A DNA stretch of 64,000 bases. Origin: a phage. Below, piece after piece: positions 3,460 through 58,853 of the stretch. The translations under genes were made by a program, and so were the position numbers. Position 1 is the stretch's first letter; each line of letters starts with the position of its first letter. The DNA lies in the sequence record OR896157.1, one strand, 5' to 3'. The notes beneath the pieces are model-generated. The model saw only the letters and a list, made by a program, of their open reading frames with translations. It was not told the DNA's origin and searched no databases.

Positions 3460-3924
3460 CTATAACTTGATAATCTTTGTGCTGATTTTACCTTTCAAGC
3501 GTTTATCATTTACGAATGCCATGCGACATTGCATGGAGTGACCGCGGAACGGATGTTCTGGGTTTGGTAGAGAGACAGTCATTCCAAGCCATAGAGTACC
3601 ATCTGTGATTTCCAGACGTTGAGGTCTGTACTCTACTTCTGGGTCAATTTCCGATGGGTCAATTGGAAGCATCGGCATTTCTAAGAACTCGTGAATTTCT
3701 GTTACATGGTTGTGTACTTTGTGGAACAGAGCGAACACATACTCTTCATCAATTTCTCGCTGGATAGCACGGTCCAGGAGGTGATTAGAATATTTAATAA
3801 AGAAAGCTGGAATACCAGCAGATGCGCAAGCACTACGTATAGAATCGTTTACACTCTTGAATTCAGTCTCAAAGCGGCGACGTAGCTTGTTTCGGCGGAT
3901 GAATACTTCTGGGTTAGTTGTCAT
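3460..3924 (-). CDS. regB: RegB-like endoribonuclease (tentative)
   Basis: about 154 aa, N-terminus MTTNPEVFIRRNKLRR; position between tk and e matches T4 order; start moved to ATG 3922-3924 behind AGGAG RBS. Confidence 0.45.
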   Translation of the reverse strand: MTTNPEVFIRRNKLRRRFETEFKSVNDSIRSACASAGIPAFFIKYSNHLLDRAIQREIDEEYVFALFHKVHNHVTEIHEFLEMPMLPIDPSEIDPEVEYRPQRLEITDGTLWLGMTVSLPNPEHPFRGHSMQCRMAFVNDKRLKGKISTKIIKL

Positions 3925-3980
3925 TTTCAATCTCCTTTGTTGATAGGGCTATAGTATCATAGCCCTTGGAGAAAGTAAAT
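3921..3980 (-). promoter_or_regulatory. conserved ~60-bp cassette, copy A (hairpin agggctat...atagccct plus AGGAG RBS)
   Basis: near-identical to 21113..21180; sits immediately upstream of regB-like ATG. Confidence 0.5.
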
Positions 3981-6176: not shown

Positions 6177-6473
6177 TTAACTAAACGGGTCGTGAAGCTT
6201 ATTACCAATACGACGGAACACTTTAGCTGCAAATTTATTGGAAGGGTTATCAACCATAATTTTGCGCATGTGACCGGTCGCGACTGTTCGAGCAGCCTTA
6301 TAACCAGCAATGTTATCTTTCAAAGTAATTCGACCTTTTCCTTTAGGGTCGTCAATGGTCACTTTGTAAGTTCCCATATCTTCGCCAGGCTTAATTTCTT
6401 CAATCCAGATATAACCACCTGGAACTCGCTTTTGTTCAGCTGCTTCATTTAAAAATTCATTATAGGTTTTCAT
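6177..6473 (-). CDS. internal head protein (IPII/IPIII-like)
   Basis: [11 protein letters not shown] capsid-targeting leader as in T4 internal proteins; start taken at this Met. Confidence 0.55.
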
Positions 6474-16405: not shown

Positions 16406-16902
16406 CAGATACTTACCACAGTAATAGCTTCAGGAGCTTTAGGAATAACGATATCTTCTTCAATGTAGAAGAGCTTAAATGTTTCAGCTACACGCATAAA
16501 GTCAATATCATAACCGACTGGAGTTCCAATCAATTCTTGAATCTTATCCATCACTTTATACTGAACTTGATAGAAATCTTCAAGACGAGCATCGAATTCA
16601 TCTTCAGTATAATCACCTTCTGGGATTACAAAGCCAAGCACTTCTGAACAGAACTCTGGAGTGATTTCTTCATTTTCAACACAGTATTCAAAGAAAGCAT
16701 CACCGGAATAATCTTCATTACCCATTCCATTAGGGTCTGAATTATCAGATGCAAAACATTTAGCAACGGCACACCAACCTGAAACGTGTCTAGCATTTAC
16801 AGCATAAATCACATTCTCTTGATAATCATCGCCATCGTTTTCCCATGATACACATGATACTGCATAACCTTTAGGGATAGTTTGACCAAAGCGGAGTTCC
16901 AT
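16405..16902 (-). CDS. hypothetical strongly acidic protein
   Basis: 165 aa, about 23 percent Asp+Glu. Confidence 0.45.
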   Translation of the reverse strand: MELRFGQTIPKGYAVSCVSWENDGDDYQENVIYAVNARHVSGWCAVAKCFASDNSDPNGMGNEDYSGDAFFEYCVENEEITPEFCSEVLGFVIPEGDYTEDEFDARLEDFYQVQYKVMDKIQELIGTPVGYDIDFMRVAETFKLFYIEEDIVIPKAPEAITVVSI

Positions 16903-16912
16903 AATATTTCCT

Positions 16913-17287
16913 TCAATTAAATGGTGGAAGAGATTTCTTATATAAATCTATCATCATTCGCCATTTAGCAATTACTTTAGAATACGGAGATTTATGAGAG
17001 AATTGCGAAATGTCAGAATAATCAAGTTCAGGCAGTGGAGTTAAATGACCCATCAGCTCACGAGGAAATTGATGAAAACAATTCATCAAATCTTTGTAAA
17101 CATAATCAAGTAAGTCTTTAACATCAAAGAATTGGGTATTTAGTCCTTCTTTGGAATAACGATATTTCAAAAATTTCCAATGACCGGACTTAGAATCTTG
17201 AGTAAACGCGTAATCACTATGAAGCATGATATCGCGAACAAAATCTTCAGAAAAGAAGATGGAGTGAGTGCAACCATAATAAATCAT
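16913..17287 (-). CDS. hypothetical protein
   Basis: ORF 16913..17335 trimmed to MIYYGC because its 5' extension overlaps a tRNA. Confidence 0.4.
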   Translation of the reverse strand: MIYYGCTHSIFFSEDFVRDIMLHSDYAFTQDSKSGHWKFLKYRYSKEGLNTQFFDVKDLLDYVYKDLMNCFHQFPRELMGHLTPLPELDYSDISQFSHKSPYSKVIAKWRMMIDLYKKSLPPFN

Positions 17288-17305
17288 AATATTTTCCTCA
17301 GAATT

Positions 17306-17382
17306 TGGTGACCCCAGCAGGACTCGAACCTGCAACCTAGCGATTATGAGTCGCGTGCTCTAACCAATTGAGCTATAGGGCC
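17306..17382 (-). tRNA. tRNA-Ile2-like (CAU)
   Basis: anticodon loop cuCAUaa; body very similar to E. coli tRNA-Ile(LAU) as recalled. Confidence 0.55.
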
Positions 17383-17409
17383 AAAGTCCTCCTAAGAGGA
17401 CCGAGGGTA

Positions 17410-17634
17410 TTATTCAACCATGAAATCTGCTACTTCATCAAAGTCGTTATTGATGACAACAGTAAATGGCAGAGCTTCATCACTTGTTTTGATAGTCAGC
17501 TTAACAAAACCATCAACAGTTTCAACCAAACCAACGATTTTATCTGAACGCACTACAGCACGAGCTACGTCAACAATTTTACCAGTCATTGCAAATGTAG
17601 CGATTTGGTTAACTTCAACAACGATACGTTTCAT
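17410..17634 (-). CDS. hypothetical protein
   Basis: 74-aa ORF. Confidence 0.4.
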   Translation of the reverse strand: MKRIVVEVNQIATFAMTGKIVDVARAVVRSDKIVGLVETVDGFVKLTIKTSDEALPFTVVINNDFDEVADFMVE

Positions 17635-17695
17635 TCTTTTTCCTTAGTGGTTTTGATAAGGTAATTATATACTGAATTTTTAAAGCGTTTTCACT

Positions 17696-17730
17696 AAAAA
17701 GCCCCGTAACAGATTTCTCTGCTCGGGGCG
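17696..17730 (-). terminator. terminator-like hairpin plus U-run after tRNA sub-cluster
   Basis: gccccg...cggggc stem followed by uuuuu on minus strand. Confidence 0.4.
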
Positions 17731-17735
17731 TCATT

Positions 17736-17810
17736 TGGTGGGAAGTGTTGGAATCGAACCAACCTCTCATGCTCTTCAGGCACGCGCTAATCCATCTCAG
17801 CTAACTTCCC
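17736..17810 (-). tRNA. tRNA-Phe(GAA)
   Basis: anticodon stem cgugc/gcaug, loop cuGAAga. Confidence 0.6.
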
Positions 17811-17813
17811 GAT

Positions 17814-17890
17814 TGGTCGGTGCGGCAGGATTTGAACCTGCGACCCCTTGGTCCCAAACCAAGTGCTCTACCAAACTGAGCTACACACCG
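17814..17890 (-). tRNA. tRNA-Pro(UGG)
   Basis: anticodon stem cuugg/ccaag, loop uuUGGga. Confidence 0.65.
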
Positions 17891-17896
17891 TTAATT

Positions 17897-17971
17897 TGGA
17901 GCATCCAGAGAGAATCGAACTCTCATCTACTGGGTGGAAGCCAGTCATAATAGCCGCTATACGATGGATGC
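17897..17971 (-). tRNA. tRNA-Gly(UCC)
   Basis: anticodon loop cuUCCac. Confidence 0.6.
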
Positions 17972-17976
17972 AATTT

Positions 17977-18070
17977 GTACGGAACGCCTGGATTCGAACC
18001 AGGTTAAATTGCGATTGACGTCACAATTTATCTTATGAAGGCCATGCCTCTACCATATCCGAACGTTCCG
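17977..18070 (-). tRNA. tRNA-like element, anticodon unresolved (possible pseudo-tRNA)
   Basis: good acceptor cggaacg/cguuccg and T-arm ccugg-UUCGAAU-ccagg, but no clean anticodon stem; contains uuCAUaa and an 8-bp extra hairpin. Confidence 0.35.
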
Positions 18071-18121
18071 TCAAAAACGCTACTCGGCTTACGGCTTAGG
18101 CAATTCCTCGAACCGATAATT

Positions 18122-18195
18122 TGGCAGGCCCCGTAGGAATCGAACCCACGTCACTGAGGTTGGAGCTCAGGATAATACCACTATACGAGAGACCT
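18122..18195 (-). tRNA. tRNA-Trp(CCA)
   Basis: anticodon stem cugag/cucag, loop cuCCAac. Confidence 0.6.
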
Positions 18196-18199
18196 AAAA

Positions 18200-18293
18200 T
18201 GGAGGAAGCGGTGGGATTCGAACCCACGGACCGTATCACTACGGCCTCCGCATTTCAAGTGCGGTGCAATTAACCAGACTCTGCCACGCTTCC
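18200..18293 (-). tRNA. tRNA-Ser(UGA), class II
   Basis: 94 nt, anticodon stem ccgca/ugcgg, loop cuUGAaa, long variable arm. Confidence 0.65.
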
Positions 18294-18297
18294 GAAT

Positions 18298-18373
18298 TGG
18301 GGTGACCGATGGGAGTTGAACCCATGACTACGAGAATCACAATCTCGAGTTCTACCAACTGAACTACGGCCAC
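18298..18373 (-). tRNA. tRNA-His(GUG)
   Basis: anticodon stem cgaga/ucucg, loop uuGUGau. Confidence 0.6.
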
Positions 18374-18587
18374 ATCAATATTCACTCCAGCAATCATGAT
18401 GCCTTCACACGAAATTGAGAGAAGAGTGATCAGTTCAACCCTTGTAGACGCGTCAAGTAAATATTGATGTGACAGCTTATTTAAGAAGAGTGAGAGTCCC
18501 AGTCTTGTACGGAGTAACCATTTATGCATTGGCAGCTATCGCGCGGTTCGCACTTCCGATAAATGGACTTACCGTTACACTCTAATT

Positions 18588-18662
18588 TGGCTGGACTATC
18601 TGGATTCGAACCAGAGATACCGGAGTCAAAGGCCGGTGACTTAACCGCTTGTCTATAGTCCA
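18588..18662 (-). tRNA. tRNA-Gln(UUG)
   Basis: anticodon loop cuUUGac, one C-U mismatch at base of anticodon stem. Confidence 0.55.
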
Positions 18663-18668
18663 ATTGTT

Positions 18669-18743
18669 TGGAGGCGGGTGATGGACTCGAACCATCGCGT
18701 AACGGGATATGAACCCGTCATTCTACCAACTGAAGTTAACCCG
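18669..18743 (-). tRNA. initiator-like tRNA-Met(CAU)
   Basis: loop uuCAUau, GGG/CCC at bottom of anticodon stem, unpaired 1:72. Confidence 0.5.
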
Positions 18744-18898
18744 CATCTATCCGGATTCTTGAAGTACTAACAAGTAGCTTGATGTAGAACACGCTAAAGA
18801 TATAATCTTACGAATATAGAGCTTATTCCGTGGGAACAAACAGCTTCGTCCTCGGCATTATCTTACAGGACTCTGACTTATCTTCAAGAACTGCCTCG

Positions 18899-19363
18899 TT
18901 ATTTTATGAACTTATTTATGAATCGTCTAGCTTGAGTATGACTGACTCCAAGTTCATTTGCAAATTTTACTAATGCACCACGTTTTGTGAAATCAATAGA
19001 ATTATATAAATCTATTCTTAAAGCAATTTCATCTGCAGTGAATTTATGAGCATGATTTTCTGATATTTTTATTTTTGTTTCATCAGAATGATTATGTCCA
19101 GTAAAACCAGTAGATACGATTCTTCCATTTGCGCCAGCGTCTTTAGCATTTTGCGCATTAGTTGCGCAATAAATGTTATCCAAAGAATATGGTCCAACAT
19201 CTCCTTTACGACACATACAATAATTATCTGAGGCTCTACCGCGCAAATGATATTTGCCAGTAGCTTTCCACCATGATAGCCATTCATCAAATGTCAGTTT
19301 AAATTCAATACCTCTTGATTTAGCATGCACTTTTTGCATGCGATACTTTTCATAATCTTTCAT
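18899..19363 (-). CDS. homing endonuclease-like protein
   Basis: GHNHSDETKIKIS (NUMOD3-like) and C-terminal helix-turn-helix ELGVSHTQARRFINK; embedded in tRNA cluster. Confidence 0.5.
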   Translation of the reverse strand: MKDYEKYRMQKVHAKSRGIEFKLTFDEWLSWWKATGKYHLRGRASDNYCMCRKGDVGPYSLDNIYCATNAQNAKDAGANGRIVSTGFTGHNHSDETKIKISENHAHKFTADEIALRIDLYNSIDFTKRGALVKFANELGVSHTQARRFINKFIK

Positions 19364-19377
19364 ATTACTCTCATATT

Positions 19378-19454
19378 TGGCAGTGCTGACGGGTTTCGAA
19401 CCCGCGATCTCTCCCGTGACAGGGGAGTGTCTTGACCATCTCGACTACAGCACT
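19378..19454 (-). tRNA. tRNA-Asp(GUC)
   Basis: anticodon stem cuccc/gggag, loop cuGUCac. Confidence 0.6.
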
Positions 19455-19699
19455 ATAAATTTACTTTCGTGAGTATGGGATTACCCTCAAGCCTTCCGGA
19501 AAGCTGAATAGGCGTTATTGGCTCTCATATACCCGTGCACAGATATAATCTTCATTAACGCAATAACTTCATCAATATACTCCGAAAGTAAACTTTCGGC
19601 GCCGTATTTAATTTTGACTGTGTAGTTATCGTTGAGGGAACTCACAGACAGGGATTAAAGTGCCGACGACTTATCAGAACGTCTTCTGACTTCTACATT

Positions 19700-19784
19700 T
19701 GGCGGGCCGTGCAGGTATCGAACCTGCCTAGTCATTTCTGACACGGATTAACAGTCCGTCGCTTACCCTCTCAGCCAACGACCC
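19700..19784 (-). tRNA. tRNA with GUU anticodon (Asn) but class-II architecture
   Basis: anticodon arm acgga-cuGUUaa-uccgu, discriminator G, 3-bp D-stem, 15-nt variable arm guca-gaaa-ugac. Confidence 0.5.
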
Positions 19785-19789
19785 AAATT

Positions 19790-19864
19790 TGGTTCTCCGT
19801 AAGAGAATTGAACTCTTCTTTCCGACGTGAAAGGCCGGCGTCCTAACCGATAGACGAACGGAGA
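19790..19864 (-). tRNA. tRNA-Glu(UUC)
   Basis: anticodon loop cuUUCac. Confidence 0.55.
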
Positions 19865-19865
19865 T

Positions 19866-19943
19866 TGGTAGGACGTGAGGGAGTTGAACCCATCGACATT
19901 CCGATTAAAAGTCGGATGCTCTAACCAACTGAGCTAACGTCCT
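19866..19943 (-). tRNA. tRNA-Lys(UUU)
   Basis: anticodon stem uccga/ucgga, loop cuUUUaa. Confidence 0.6.
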
Positions 19944-19981
19944 GTAGATATTTATAATAACAAAAATATCTTTAAGCAAAT

Positions 19982-20057
19982 TGGTGGGAATAACTGGGCT
20001 CGAACCAGTGACCTAACGATTATCGGTCGTTTGCTCTACCAACTGAGCTATATTCCC
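19982..20057 (-). tRNA. tRNA-Ile(GAU)
   Basis: anticodon stem aacga/ucguu, loop ccGAUaa. Confidence 0.55.
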
Positions 20058-20063
20058 TGAATT

Positions 20064-20151
20064 TGGTGGGGAGTGATGGAGTCGAACCACCCGAGTCGCA
20101 ATGACAACAGATTTACAGTCTGCACCGCTACCTCTACGGAATTAACTCCCC
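20064..20151 (-). tRNA. tRNA-Tyr(GUA), class II
   Basis: 88 nt, loop cuGUAaa, discriminator A, long variable arm. Confidence 0.6.
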
Positions 20152-20956: not shown

Positions 20957-21122
20957 TTGCAATTTTATCCATAACGAATGAAATGATACCAGCAACGAGT
21001 GTAAGTACTACGCTACTGATGAGTTCAGAATTTGAAAGGAACGGCCATCCGAAGATTGAAGTTCCAAGTGCTCCCAGGGTTACTACAGTAAAGATGTTTC
21101 CGATGATTTCGCAACGTTTCAT
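20943..21122 (-). CDS. small hydrophobic peptide
   Basis: hand-translated MKRCEIIGNIFTVVTLGALGTSIFGWPFLSNSELISSVVLTLVAGIISFVMDKIANEPN; ATG behind AGGAG RBS of cassette copy B. Confidence 0.3.
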   Translation of the reverse strand: MKRCEIIGNIFTVVTLGALGTSIFGWPFLSNSELISSVVLTLVAGIISFVMDKIANEPN

Positions 21123-21180
21123 TTTTAATCTCCTTGTGTTGATAGGGCTATAGTATCATAGCCCTCAAGGAAAGTAAACG
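21113..21180 (-). promoter_or_regulatory. conserved ~60-bp cassette, copy B (hairpin plus RBS)
   Basis: near-identical to 3921..3980. Confidence 0.5.
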
Positions 21181-21187
21181 GCTAAAA

Positions 21188-22198
<1,011 letters not shown>

Positions 22199-34099: not shown

Positions 34100-34123
34100 C
34101 GGGAGCCTGAGGGCTCCCATTTT
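34100..34123 (+). terminator. hairpin gggagcc-ugag-ggcuccc plus U-run
   Basis: directly after gene 8 and before gene 9 late promoter. Confidence 0.5.
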
Positions 34124-34124
34124 T

Positions 34125-34132
34125 GTATAAAT
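34125..34132 (+). promoter_or_regulatory. late promoter TATAAATA for gene 9
   Basis: exact motif about 25 nt upstream of ATG. Confidence 0.6.
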
Positions 34133-53483: not shown

Positions 53484-53501
53484 GGGAGCCGCAAGGCTCC
53501 C
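53484..53501 (+). terminator. hairpin gggagcc-gcaa-ggcuccc plus U-rich tail
   Basis: after gene 23. Confidence 0.5.
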
Positions 53502-53557
53502 ATTGTTGTTTCTACGGATGATAAATAAAAGTATAATCCACTAGAGGAAAAGCGACG

Positions 53558-54844: not shown

Positions 54845-54870
54845 AAAGGGAACCTCACGGTTCCCTTTTG
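54845..54870. terminator. bidirectional hairpin aagggaacc-ucac-gguucccuu
   Basis: between convergent gene 24 and ORF 54874..55419. Confidence 0.5.
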
Positions 54871-54873
54871 TAG

Positions 54874-57451: not shown

Positions 57452-58853
57452 AATAGATGATGCCAGCTTCTAAAGCTGAACGATGAACAATACGTCCATT
57501 CCGTGATTCTTGCACATCAACTTCTGGATAATCATCTAGCATTTTAGCTAGTGTATATCGGTGCAAGTAATAATCGCTGTCGGTGTCATCAAGTTTCCAA
57601 TCTTTTCCTGCGACAGTCATTTCTTGGATTTCATCCATGACCCACCAACCACACCAGATATAGGCTGTTCCTCGGAATGGCAGAGGATGAATATACGGAA
57701 GTTCTCCATCAGGGGCAGGAGCTACCCTTTTAGTAATAGTTACATCACCAGTTGTAGTGACTGTAACAGGAGTGTAATCTTCTGCGGAAACATCAACAGA
57801 AACACCAATCACTTGGGACCCTATATCAGACGTGTCAATCACTAAAGTGCTAGTAGAACCTTCTACAGGAGAACCATCTTTAGTCCAAGAATAAACCCCA
57901 GTTGCACCTTCAGGAGCACCGATAACATTGGCTTTAAAAGACGCCTCAGACCCCTGCTCGGTCGTAATAGACTCAGGAGTCAAAGTAACTGAAACCCCGC
58001 TCATGGTCTTTTTGGTAATCGTTACATTACCGGTTTTAGTAACTGTAACGGGTTTATAATCTGGAGCAGAAACAACAGCAGAAACCTCAATTGCCTGCGA
58101 CCCGATAGTGGATGTATCAATTTCTAGCGTACTTGTTGAGCCTTCTATAGGAGAACCGTCTTTGGCCCATGAGTAAGCTACAGATGCTCCCGCCGGCGCT
58201 CCAGTAACATCGGCTTTAAAAGATGCTTCTGCTCCCTTTTCAGCGGTAATTGAACTAGGCGTCAGAGTAACAGAAACACCACTCATGGTCTTTTTAGTGA
58301 TGGTTACGCTAGCACCTTTGCTTACAGTCACTGGATTGTAATCTGGTGCAGAAACTGTTGCTTCACAATTCAGAGTATAATTAGCCTCTGCTGACTCAGT
58401 TATGGTAATCGTTTTAGCAGTCTGACCTTCAATAACGACAGTACCACGCTTCCAAACATAAGCAATGCTTGCACCTTCTGGAGCACCAACAACGTTAGCC
58501 GTAACTACCTGAGACTGGCCAATTTCTTTAGAAACAGAAGTCGGGCTCAAAGTTAAAGTAATCGCAGGCATAGTTTTGTTCTGAACTGTAAGAGTGGTTT
58601 CTGCCTCAGCAGTTTCTGCCTCACCCTCTGCTGGGGTAACAGTAGCAACTACTTTAACAGTCTTACTGCCGGCAGGTCCTGCAGCAACATAATTCATAGC
58701 TGCGGTGACAGAAGATTGTTTTACGCCATTTACTGTCCATACAAACGTTTCTGTGCCTTCAGCTGCGGCTCCAGAAGTTGTTGCAGTAAAATTGGTTGTT
58801 GCTCCAATGACTGCCGAAGCAGCCAAAGGAGCAATAGATACGCTATAAGCCAT
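57450..58853 (-). CDS. hoc: Hoc-like outer capsid protein with tandem Ig-like domains
   Basis: repeated ~90-aa Ig-like units (KKTMSGVSVTLTP...) and C-terminal capsid-binding-like domain; position between rnlB and uvsW. Confidence 0.75.
   Translation of the reverse strand: MAYSVSIAPLAASAVIGATTNFTATTSGAAAEGTETFVWTVNGVKQSSVTAAMNYVAAGPAGSKTVKVVATVTPAEGEAETAEAETTLTVQNKTMPAITLTLSPTSVSKEIGQSQVVTANVVGAPEGASIAYVWKRGTVVIEGQTAKTITITESAEANYTLNCEATVSAPDYNPVTVSKGASVTITKKTMSGVSVTLTPSSITAEKGAEASFKADVTGAPAGASVAYSWAKDGSPIEGSTSTLEIDTSTIGSQAIEVSAVVSAPDYKPVTVTKTGNVTITKKTMSGVSVTLTPESITTEQGSEASFKANVIGAPEGATGVYSWTKDGSPVEGSTSTLVIDTSDIGSQVIGVSVDVSAEDYTPVTVTTTGDVTITKRVAPAPDGELPYIHPLPFRGTAYIWCGWWVMDEIQEMTVAGKDWKLDDTDSDYYLHRYTLAKMLDDYPEVDVQESRNGRIVHRSALEAGIIY
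57740..58300 (-). repeat. two tandem near-identical ~273-bp repeat units inside hoc
   Basis: DNA units beginning actcatggtcttttt... repeated; they encode the duplicated Ig-like domains. Confidence 0.6.

Follow-up and report, generated by a model that had tools for sequence, protein, structure and literature searches.

A repeated cassette ahead of the trna.4 homologue of a T4-like phage: a probable early promoter with a proposed helix that masks the ribosome-binding site

The 64,000-nucleotide (nt) stretch of phage sequence record OR896157.1 surveyed here (the window) carries at 21113-21180 a repeated cassette, here called copy B, which ends at the start codon of a homologue of the phage T4 gene trna.4. 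Copy B is probably a T4-type immediate-early promoter cassette of the promoter-early stem-loop (PeSL) kind, for which masking of the Shine-Dalgarno sequence in read-through transcripts is also proposed. The cassette has a definite anatomy, is repeated, shows covariation and is conserved across genera. All the genes at this locus are carried by the minus strand, and the cassette must therefore be read as the reverse complement of the view taken in an earlier note on this DNA, which had described a second copy of a hairpin with a ribosome-binding site. The interval given there fits well, as the cassette spans G21179 of GTTTAC to the ATG at 21122-21120. Its parts are as follows.

21173-21179, minus strand: -35 element GTTTACT (hexamer TTTACT at 21178-21173), recognised by sequence and fitting TTTACW-N17-TAYWAT
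21156-21172, minus strand: spacer of 17 nt, its 3' end bearing the TG (21158-21157) of an extended -10 element
21150-21155, minus strand: -10 hexamer TACTAT, overlapping the loop and 3' arm of the inner hairpin
21143, minus strand: predicted transcription start, the A of ATCAAC, 7 nt past the -10 hexamer, placed by promoter geometry with an uncertainty of 1-2 nt
21144-21165, minus strand: inner hairpin of 8 base pairs (bp), with 5' arm AGGGCTAT (21165-21158), loop GATACT (21157-21152) and 3' arm ATAGCCCT (21151-21144)
21166-21173, minus strand: outer-helix 5' arm UUUCCUUG, made of the spacer's TTCCTTG and the last T of the -35 hexamer, complementary to the Shine-Dalgarno region
21130-21137, minus strand: Shine-Dalgarno region CAAGGAGA, which is also the outer-helix 3' arm (AAGGAG at 21135-21130, GGAG at 21133-21130)

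Judged from its sequence, the cassette appears to hold a complete T4-type early sigma-70 promoter with a start at about A21143. The consensus reported for PeSL promoters of the T4/PST pair, TTTACW-N17-TAYWAT (PMC4122927), occurs three times in the window, always on the minus (coding) strand, against 0.16 occurrences expected for both strands combined. T4 early promoters have been described as consisting of UP, -35, TGn and -10 elements plus further regions of consensus (PMC2988021); copy B has a modest A/T-rich stretch upstream, and copy A, the other copy of the cassette in the window, a weak one. The same promoter design is found upstream of T4 regB, denV, trna.4, ipI, ipII, ipIII, e.6, e.7, e.8 and mobD.5, and it recurs upstream of the homologues of these genes in a Klebsiella phage, JS98, STP4-a and a dozen further Tevenvirinae. 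For the denV and mobD.5 promoters of T4, 5' ends have been shown by primer extension (PMC1702504, legend to Fig. 5). The tetranucleotide ATCA occupies the predicted positions +1 to +4 in 29 of 50 non-redundant related cassettes. The T4 records NC_000866 and AF158101 are without promoter features, hence they offer no direct annotation of the orthologous T4 promoters. A middle promoter was rejected on the absence of the MotA box TGCTT and a late promoter on the absence of TATAAATA within 21113-21200. Immediate-early timing would follow by orthology with the early promoter of T4 regB (PMC3014915).

Among the cassettes of the window and the related loci, CCTATCAA was seen to span the start, and a TTAACCG or AAAGTTG motif directly precedes the -35 box. 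Along with ATCA, they may represent the 'additional regions of consensus' that have been noted in early promoters of T4.

The position of the promoter bears on what the hairpin can do. As the -10 box lies partly in the loop and partly in the 3' arm of the inner hairpin, the cassette's own transcript would begin just 3' of the hairpin and lack it. The view implied by the earlier note, that the hairpin sits in the leader of its own mRNA as a stabiliser or translational element and that the cassette holds no promoter, draws on the adjacency and joint conservation of hairpin and ribosome site and on the silence of a generic sigma-70 scan. It is nonetheless very improbable, given the full T4-type -35/TGn/-10 array with 17-nt spacing overlapping the hairpin, the same design at T4 promoters with mapped 5' ends (regB, denV and mobD.5; PMC3014915, PMC1702504), and a ribosome site that is paired, not exposed, in the folded read-through RNA. 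The 'hairpin-plus-RBS' label was thus right about the hairpin and the strong ribosome-binding site, and a nearby transcript start is to be expected as well, but it overlooked the promoter and misplaced the hairpin relative to the transcript.

Two further, more diverged early-promoter cassettes of the same design were noticed on the minus strand at 13161-13189 and 13488-13515. The first has a stem GATGAGGTA/TACCTCATC with arms as in the hairpin of the T4 ipI promoter (-17.9 kcal/mol); in the region behind it (12927-13125, minus strand), an open reading frame (ORF) encoding 30 amino acids (aa), MKFNTSTIHE..., is followed by a 38-aa ORF in another frame. Its STP4-a homologue has 66 aa (MAKFNTVTID...), and the window gene may be frameshifted or decaying. 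The second cassette forms a weak hairpin only and precedes an 86-aa ORF (13195-13455).

That copy B is a second copy of a repeated cassette, as first claimed, is confirmed by exact repetition, by shuffling and by alignment. The 27-nt sequence TTGATAGGGCTATAGTATCATAGCCCT occurs exactly twice in the window, at 3940-3966 and 21139-21165, and was not matched in 100 dinucleotide-preserving shuffles with up to three mismatches allowed; a chance repeat is ruled out, with none expected in shuffles. Searching with a 20-nt core returned the same two sites only, and a repeat-family search joined copies A and B over 42 nt at 90% identity. In pairwise alignment the two are nearly identical from the -35 box through the ATG and have unrelated flanks. 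Copy A lies as follows.

3922-3980, minus strand: copy A of the cassette (-35 at 3979-3974, -10 at 3956-3951, hairpin at 3966-3945, GGAG at 3935-3932, ATG at 3924)

The gene behind copy A is regB, its product matching PF10715 (REGB_T4) with E = 9.3e-70. A third copy, bearing GGGCTAT/ATAGCCC, lies outside the window, before cef in the phage CC31 (NC_014662, 8685-8626). One promoter cassette is thus common, in the CC31 lineage, to cef (a modifier of suppressor tRNAs), regB and trna.4, two of which are linked to tRNAs.

The inner hairpin is identical in the two copies (21144-21165 and 3945-3966). When the 44-nt segment from the -35 box to +15 was folded, copy B reached -13.1 kcal/mol (z = -4.9) and copy A -13.0 kcal/mol (z = -5.4), and the mean of 50 T4-like cassettes was -8.6 kcal/mol (z = -2.7), against -3.1 kcal/mol (z = -0.3) for 12 distinct unrelated promoters of the same pattern. 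These controls came from one IMG/VR and 29 metagenome matches to the promoter pattern, all of which were rejected as homologues, being unrelated promoters; the metagenome ones have no hairpin. The hairpin is therefore selected, and not a by-product of the promoter sequence.

Covariation points the same way for the inner stem, as supporting evidence only. In 15 cassettes aligned without gaps, the stem takes the forms GGGCTAT/ATAGCCC, GGGTTAT/ATAACCC, GGGCCAT/ATGGCCC and GAGGTA/TACCTC, all in the same register. Stem pair 18-31 is CG in seven sequences and UA in six, and pair 19-30 is UA in nine, AU in two and CG in two. The covariation score was 0.248 versus 0.139 for shuffled sequences, with none of 500 shuffles reaching the observed value, and it was at most 0.11 with slid partners. 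Concerted evolution of the copies within genomes is inconsistent with the differing stems of the regB and trna.4 cassettes of K65 and with the STP4a regB cassette, which is without the inner hairpin. The Rfam covariance models left the cassette unmatched, the only hit being a sub-threshold, chance one to snoZ159 (18.6 bits versus a gathering threshold of 39, E = 0.43). An RNase III site was also considered and nothing in the tests supported it.

A second tier of pairing surrounds this hairpin. In the minimum free energy (MFE) structure from the -35 box to the ATG, UUUCCUUG pairs with CAAGGAGA around the inner hairpin, and the 61-nt cassette RNA of copy B folds at -21.6 kcal/mol (z = -5.6, none of 200 shuffles folding as well), which confirms the hairpin of the earlier note; copy A reaches -18.6 kcal/mol (z = -4.1). 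By comparison, the leader folds into no structure (0 kcal/mol) over its 24 nt from the predicted start. For the GGAG of copy B, the mean unpaired probability was computed as 0.005 in a read-through RNA of 169 nt and 0.41 in RNA started at the promoter; for that of copy A the values were 0.004 and 0.38. When the -35 box and spacer of copy B were shuffled, the value rose from 0.005 to a mean of 0.42, and equally low values were reached by only 1.3% of such shuffles for copy B and 3% for copy A. Across the 50 cassettes the median was 0.107 in read-through RNA versus 0.573 in RNA from the cassette's own promoter (Wilcoxon p = 1e-7). This predicted masking was seen in every regB and denV cassette and in the trna.4/cef cassettes of Karam-, Moon- and Gelderlandvirus and of Klebsiella phages.

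The outer arms vary by lineage yet stay complementary, as in T4 regB (CCTCTTGACTG/CAGTTAAGAGG), denV (TCTCCTGTAG/CTACAGGAGA), CkP1 regB (CCTCCTCTTTTTG/CAAAAGAGGAGAG) and PhiKR8 (CCTCG/TGAGG). The duplex between a cassette's own 5' arm and its own leader averaged -14.0 kcal/mol, versus -10.1 kcal/mol for cross-pairings (permutation P < 1e-4).

Such a stable structure (-21.6 kcal/mol), beginning 9 nt past the stop codon of the upstream gene ip7, might instead serve mainly as a terminator or attenuator of ip7/57B transcription, with the promoter restarting transcription behind it. This is the role first proposed for PeSL stem-loops, one of which, in RB49, reduced a downstream lacZ about as much as the rrnB T1 terminator did (PMC2839356). 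We regard it as unlikely for the present cassette, as no U-tract follows either helix (AUCAACA comes after the inner stem and UUAAAAAUG after the outer helix), a terminator scan gave no match at the cassette, and the stem has fewer G-C pairs than the G4/C4 stems of RB49. An intrinsic (Rho-independent) terminator was rejected for want of a U-tract and a scan match. Termination alone, moreover, would leave the specific, covarying pairing of 5' arm and Shine-Dalgarno sequence unexplained. Elsewhere in the window, three plus-strand hairpins of the form GGGAGCC-loop-GGCTCCC with T-runs (34101-34126, 53484-53509 and 54848-54873) lie in the late-gene region and look like canonical intrinsic terminators, unlike the cassette hairpin.

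Whether the inverted repeat acts as RNA or as DNA is a separate matter. It could be a cruciform or palindromic binding site for promoter shut-off, or a recombination site for PeSL-mediated shuffling. The palindrome does overlap the -10 box, and the shut-off of early promoters has been called 'not completely understood' (PMC3014915). Inverted repeats of the GGGC/GCCC type, which the cassette's stem recalls, have been noted where T4 deletions end (Mosig 1998, as cited in PMC2839356), and nearly identical cassettes stand before unrelated genes, namely the window's trna.4 and regB, and cef in CC31 and Gelderlandvirus phages; in two of the latter the cef cassette matches the trna.4 cassette of S16/STP4-a exactly or almost exactly. 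Copy B also borders a hypervariable internal-protein locus, and the regB cassette of the Karamvirus CkP1 differs. K65, however, has two self-complementary stems, GGGCTAT at trna.4 and GGGCCAT at regB, which argues against a single sequence-specific protein. The outer helix uses the Shine-Dalgarno sequence, which has no obvious meaning in DNA. The sense strand of copy B folds better than the antisense strand (-21.6 versus -17.7 to -17.9 kcal/mol; p = 0.024 over the set) and G-U pairs are located on the sense strand, which mildly favours a role at the RNA level. A DNA-level function in place of an RNA-level one thus seems distinctly improbable. A recombination role may accompany the early promoter with Shine-Dalgarno masking, with which it is compatible and not exclusive.

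For the favoured reading the following course of events is envisaged. Host sigma-70 RNA polymerase would recognise GTTTACT, the 17-nt spacer, TGa and TACTAT and initiate at about A21143 immediately after infection. The resulting transcript would have a short open leader, AUCAACACAAGGAGAUUAAAAAUG, and a strong Shine-Dalgarno sequence from which Trna.4 would be translated, and transcription would probably run on through three small ORFs into the tRNA array. The inverted repeat lies wholly upstream of the predicted start, so as RNA it would exist only in read-through transcripts from ip7/57B. There it would form the two-tier helix, with part of the -10 box in the inner loop and the ribosome site hidden by the outer helix, and translation of trna.4 and regB would thus be confined to RNA from the local early promoter. 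As DNA, the conserved cassette of about 60 bp before trna.4, regB and cef may in addition be a patch of homology.

A RegB-type site enters the scheme at the same four nucleotides. The consensus for strong RegB/S1 sites is GGAGRAYARAA (PMC3014915, PMC1702504), to which copy B (GGAGATTAAAA) conforms at 10 of 11 positions and copy A (GGAGATTGAAA) at 9 of 11, and the GGAG of GGAGATTAAAA is unpaired in the predicted fold of the promoter-initiated leader. RegB is reported to be blocked by secondary structure and, in phages related to T4, to cleave the Shine-Dalgarno sequence of its own gene (PMC3014915). With this match to the consensus the early mRNA would probably be inactivated by RegB, and the helix would also hide the RegB site on read-through RNA, given that secondary structure blocks the enzyme. 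Taken further, in many Tevenvirinae the early promoters of regB, denV and trna.4/cef (in Karam-, Moon- and Gelderlandvirus and Klebsiella phages) might double as translational insulators, a suggestion that we offer tentatively and would not put at even chances. Equally tentative is its corollary, that only locally started early RNA would be translated and exposed to RegB, read-through RNA, including late RNA, staying silent.

Several points weigh against the interpretation as an early promoter with a masking helix. The generic sigma-70 scan flagged no promoter at copy B, because 8 of the 12 positions of TTGACA/TATAAT matched and nine were needed; the call was accordingly based on the consensus specific to T4. 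The covariation is support and not proof, because the set is small (15) and its sequences are related. The outer helix is missing in the trna.4 cassettes of T4, JS98 and LYE-01 and in those of internal-protein (IP) genes, which have the inner hairpin only, and it is therefore no universal feature. In copy A it has just 5 bp, with a duplex energy ranking 14th of 19. Masking of the Shine-Dalgarno sequence is predicted from thermodynamics, and the helix could be disturbed by a ribosome that ends translation of ip7, whose stop codon is 9 nt from the -35 hexamer; the T/C-rich anti-Shine-Dalgarno run of the spacer could partly mirror promoter consensus. As to RegB, position 6 of the site is T where A is favoured, and copy A also has G at position 8.

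The surroundings of copy B identify the phage. The locus is 99.7-99.9% identical to CC31-group Enterobacter phages (Karamvirus, Tevenvirinae), with about 99.7% to CC31 itself, the region of copy A is equally close to the group, and by sequence the window is that of a T4-like Karamvirus. The minus-strand gene order in CC31 is gene 3, 1, 57A, 57B, ip7, 'tRNA.4', three small ORFs and tRNA genes; in T4 the order is the same but ipI replaces ip7, and both T4 and JS98 have an IP gene, trna.4, trna.3, trna.2 and then tRNAs. Copy B thus marks the border of the hypervariable internal-protein locus, with a different upstream gene in each genus examined: the gene before trna.4 is ip7 in the window, ipI in T4, Ip8-like in Merlin and others elsewhere. 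The neighbouring features are these.

21188-21496, minus strand: ip7, so named in CC31 (phrog_2667, internal head protein, E = 1.8e-42)
21188-21190, minus strand: ip7 stop codon TAG, 9 nt before the -35 hexamer and 8 nt before G21179
20943-21122, minus strand: trna.4 homologue of 59 aa (ATG at 21122-21120; CC31p145; phrog_1692 end to end, E = 3.7e-26)
14804-20151, minus strand: tRNA array of about 20 genes, 3' of trna.4 and three more small ORFs

The A/T-rich stretch around the ip7 TAG is AATAAAATAGTTTTA. A 45-nt repeat of 78% identity links 21452-21496 with 6429-6473 (minus strand) and corresponds to codons 1-15 of ip7 and of a second gene; the shared N-terminus, MKTYQEFI..., is typical for internal head proteins.

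The ATG at 21122 had been proposed as the start of a 59-aa hydrophobic peptide, and the phrog_1692 match over its full length bears out a real small gene. It had been thought absent from the list of ORFs, but the annotation of CC31 already includes it as CC31p145 'tRNA.4', and in S16 the gene is labelled 'similar to Trna.4'. AAGGAG stands 7 nt from this ATG, within a predicted leader of 21 nt. Trna.4 homologues of T4, STP4-a, Merlin and Klebsiella phages have 59-61 aa, two hydrophobic segments and the conserved termini MKRCE(L/I)I and ISF(V/I)MDKI, and the product is predicted to be a small membrane protein.

The tRNA array comprises about 20 genes in the window versus eight each in CC31 and T4. 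No other minus-strand match to TTKAC-N17-19-TAnnAT was found between 21150 and 13515, and the array is probably distal cargo of copy B transcripts. T4 tRNAs and RegB are early products (PMC9697503). Within the window's array, the tRNA at 20067-20151 was found by Rfam only (39 bits; the CC31 equivalent is tRNA-Tyr), and a 95-nt 'tRNA-Met' at 17977-18071 was called by ARAGORN only. The array also contains a 154-aa ORF (MKDYEKYRMQKVHAKSRGIEFKL...; 18899-19363, minus strand); the T4 array carries the homing endonuclease gene segB at a comparable position. Far from these loci, 57728-58504 contains two to three tandem copies of a 282-nt unit with 70-74% identity, probably as a repeated domain in a structural gene.

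For annotation, the gain is a predicted early promoter with a probable start and a real small gene ahead of an unusually large tRNA array, and the recognition that a single regulatory cassette is common to regB, trna.4 and, in CC31, cef. Should the proposed masking prove true, the anti-Shine-Dalgarno arm would explain how RegB, DenV and small membrane proteins are barred from being made off late read-through transcripts, PeSL stem-loops would gain a testable translational role other than termination, and the early-promoter insulator would be the mirror image of the classic hairpin of T4 lysozyme (e). The cassette would also be a compact natural part, combining in about 60 bp a strong promoter and an insulating hairpin, both predicted, with a ribosome-binding site.

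Cassettes of this type have been described before, both as PeSLs and among the early promoters of T4, and the conserved gene in the small ORF is likewise known, although a literature search returned no description of such cassettes in the CC31/Karamvirus lineage. PeSLs have been described as starting with the stop codon of the gene before them, set in A/T-rich sequence, followed by an early promoter with a stem-loop that sits between its boxes or overlaps the -10, and ending in a Shine-Dalgarno sequence with ATG (Arbiol et al. 2010, PMC2839356); they have been extended to T4/PST and KVP40/nt-1 (Comeau et al. 2014, PMC4122927). Promoter and terminator activity and recombination between copies (mini-circles) also characterise PeSLs and were addressed by reporter assays and inverse PCR in PMC2839356. 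At the sequence level the present cassette has all of these, including the promoter spacing of about 17 nt. As in PeSLs, it recurs (two copies in the window, the cef copy in CC31 and the two diverged cassettes at 13189 and 13515), borders a variable IP locus and stands before different genes. It differs in its stem, GGGCTAT/ATAGCCC without a U-tract where RB49 has G4/C4 stems. The PeSL passages searched in these papers treat the stem-loop as a terminator or attenuator.

Compared with the T4 early promoters, the cassettes occupy orthologous positions at regB and trna.4 and share GTTTAC, the 17-nt spacer, TGn, TAnnAT and the ATCA start, and in T4 as well the helix arms straddle the -10 box. The helix sequences, however, differ by lineage; at trna.4 the T4 cassette forms just a hairpin, which is in another register and leaves the Shine-Dalgarno sequence unmasked, and the regB and trna.4 cassettes, which differ in T4, are nearly identical in this phage. 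T4 regB likewise has GGAG as its Shine-Dalgarno sequence, where RegB cleaves it (PMC3014915), and the RegB/S1 sites of Durand et al. (2006, PMC1702504) similarly combine GGAG in the Shine-Dalgarno sequence of early genes with A/U-rich sequence after it.

The closest parallel to the proposed masking is found in T4 e, soc, 49 and I-TevI, where a helix masks the Shine-Dalgarno sequence in long transcripts and a promoter lies inside it (McPheeters 1986; PMC3014915). There, as is predicted here, the locally started RNA without the 5' arm is translated. Their internal promoter is late and delays translation, whereas that of the cassette is early and would confine translation to the early period; with an early internal promoter and no TATAAATA, the cassette resembles this class in its predicted working but falls outside it. 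An anti-Shine-Dalgarno outer helix is unmentioned in the searched PeSL passages (PMC2839356, PMC4122927) and T4 review passages. Relative to these sources, what the present cassettes would add is a predicted anti-Shine-Dalgarno arm, covarying with the ribosome-binding site, in a subset of early promoters.

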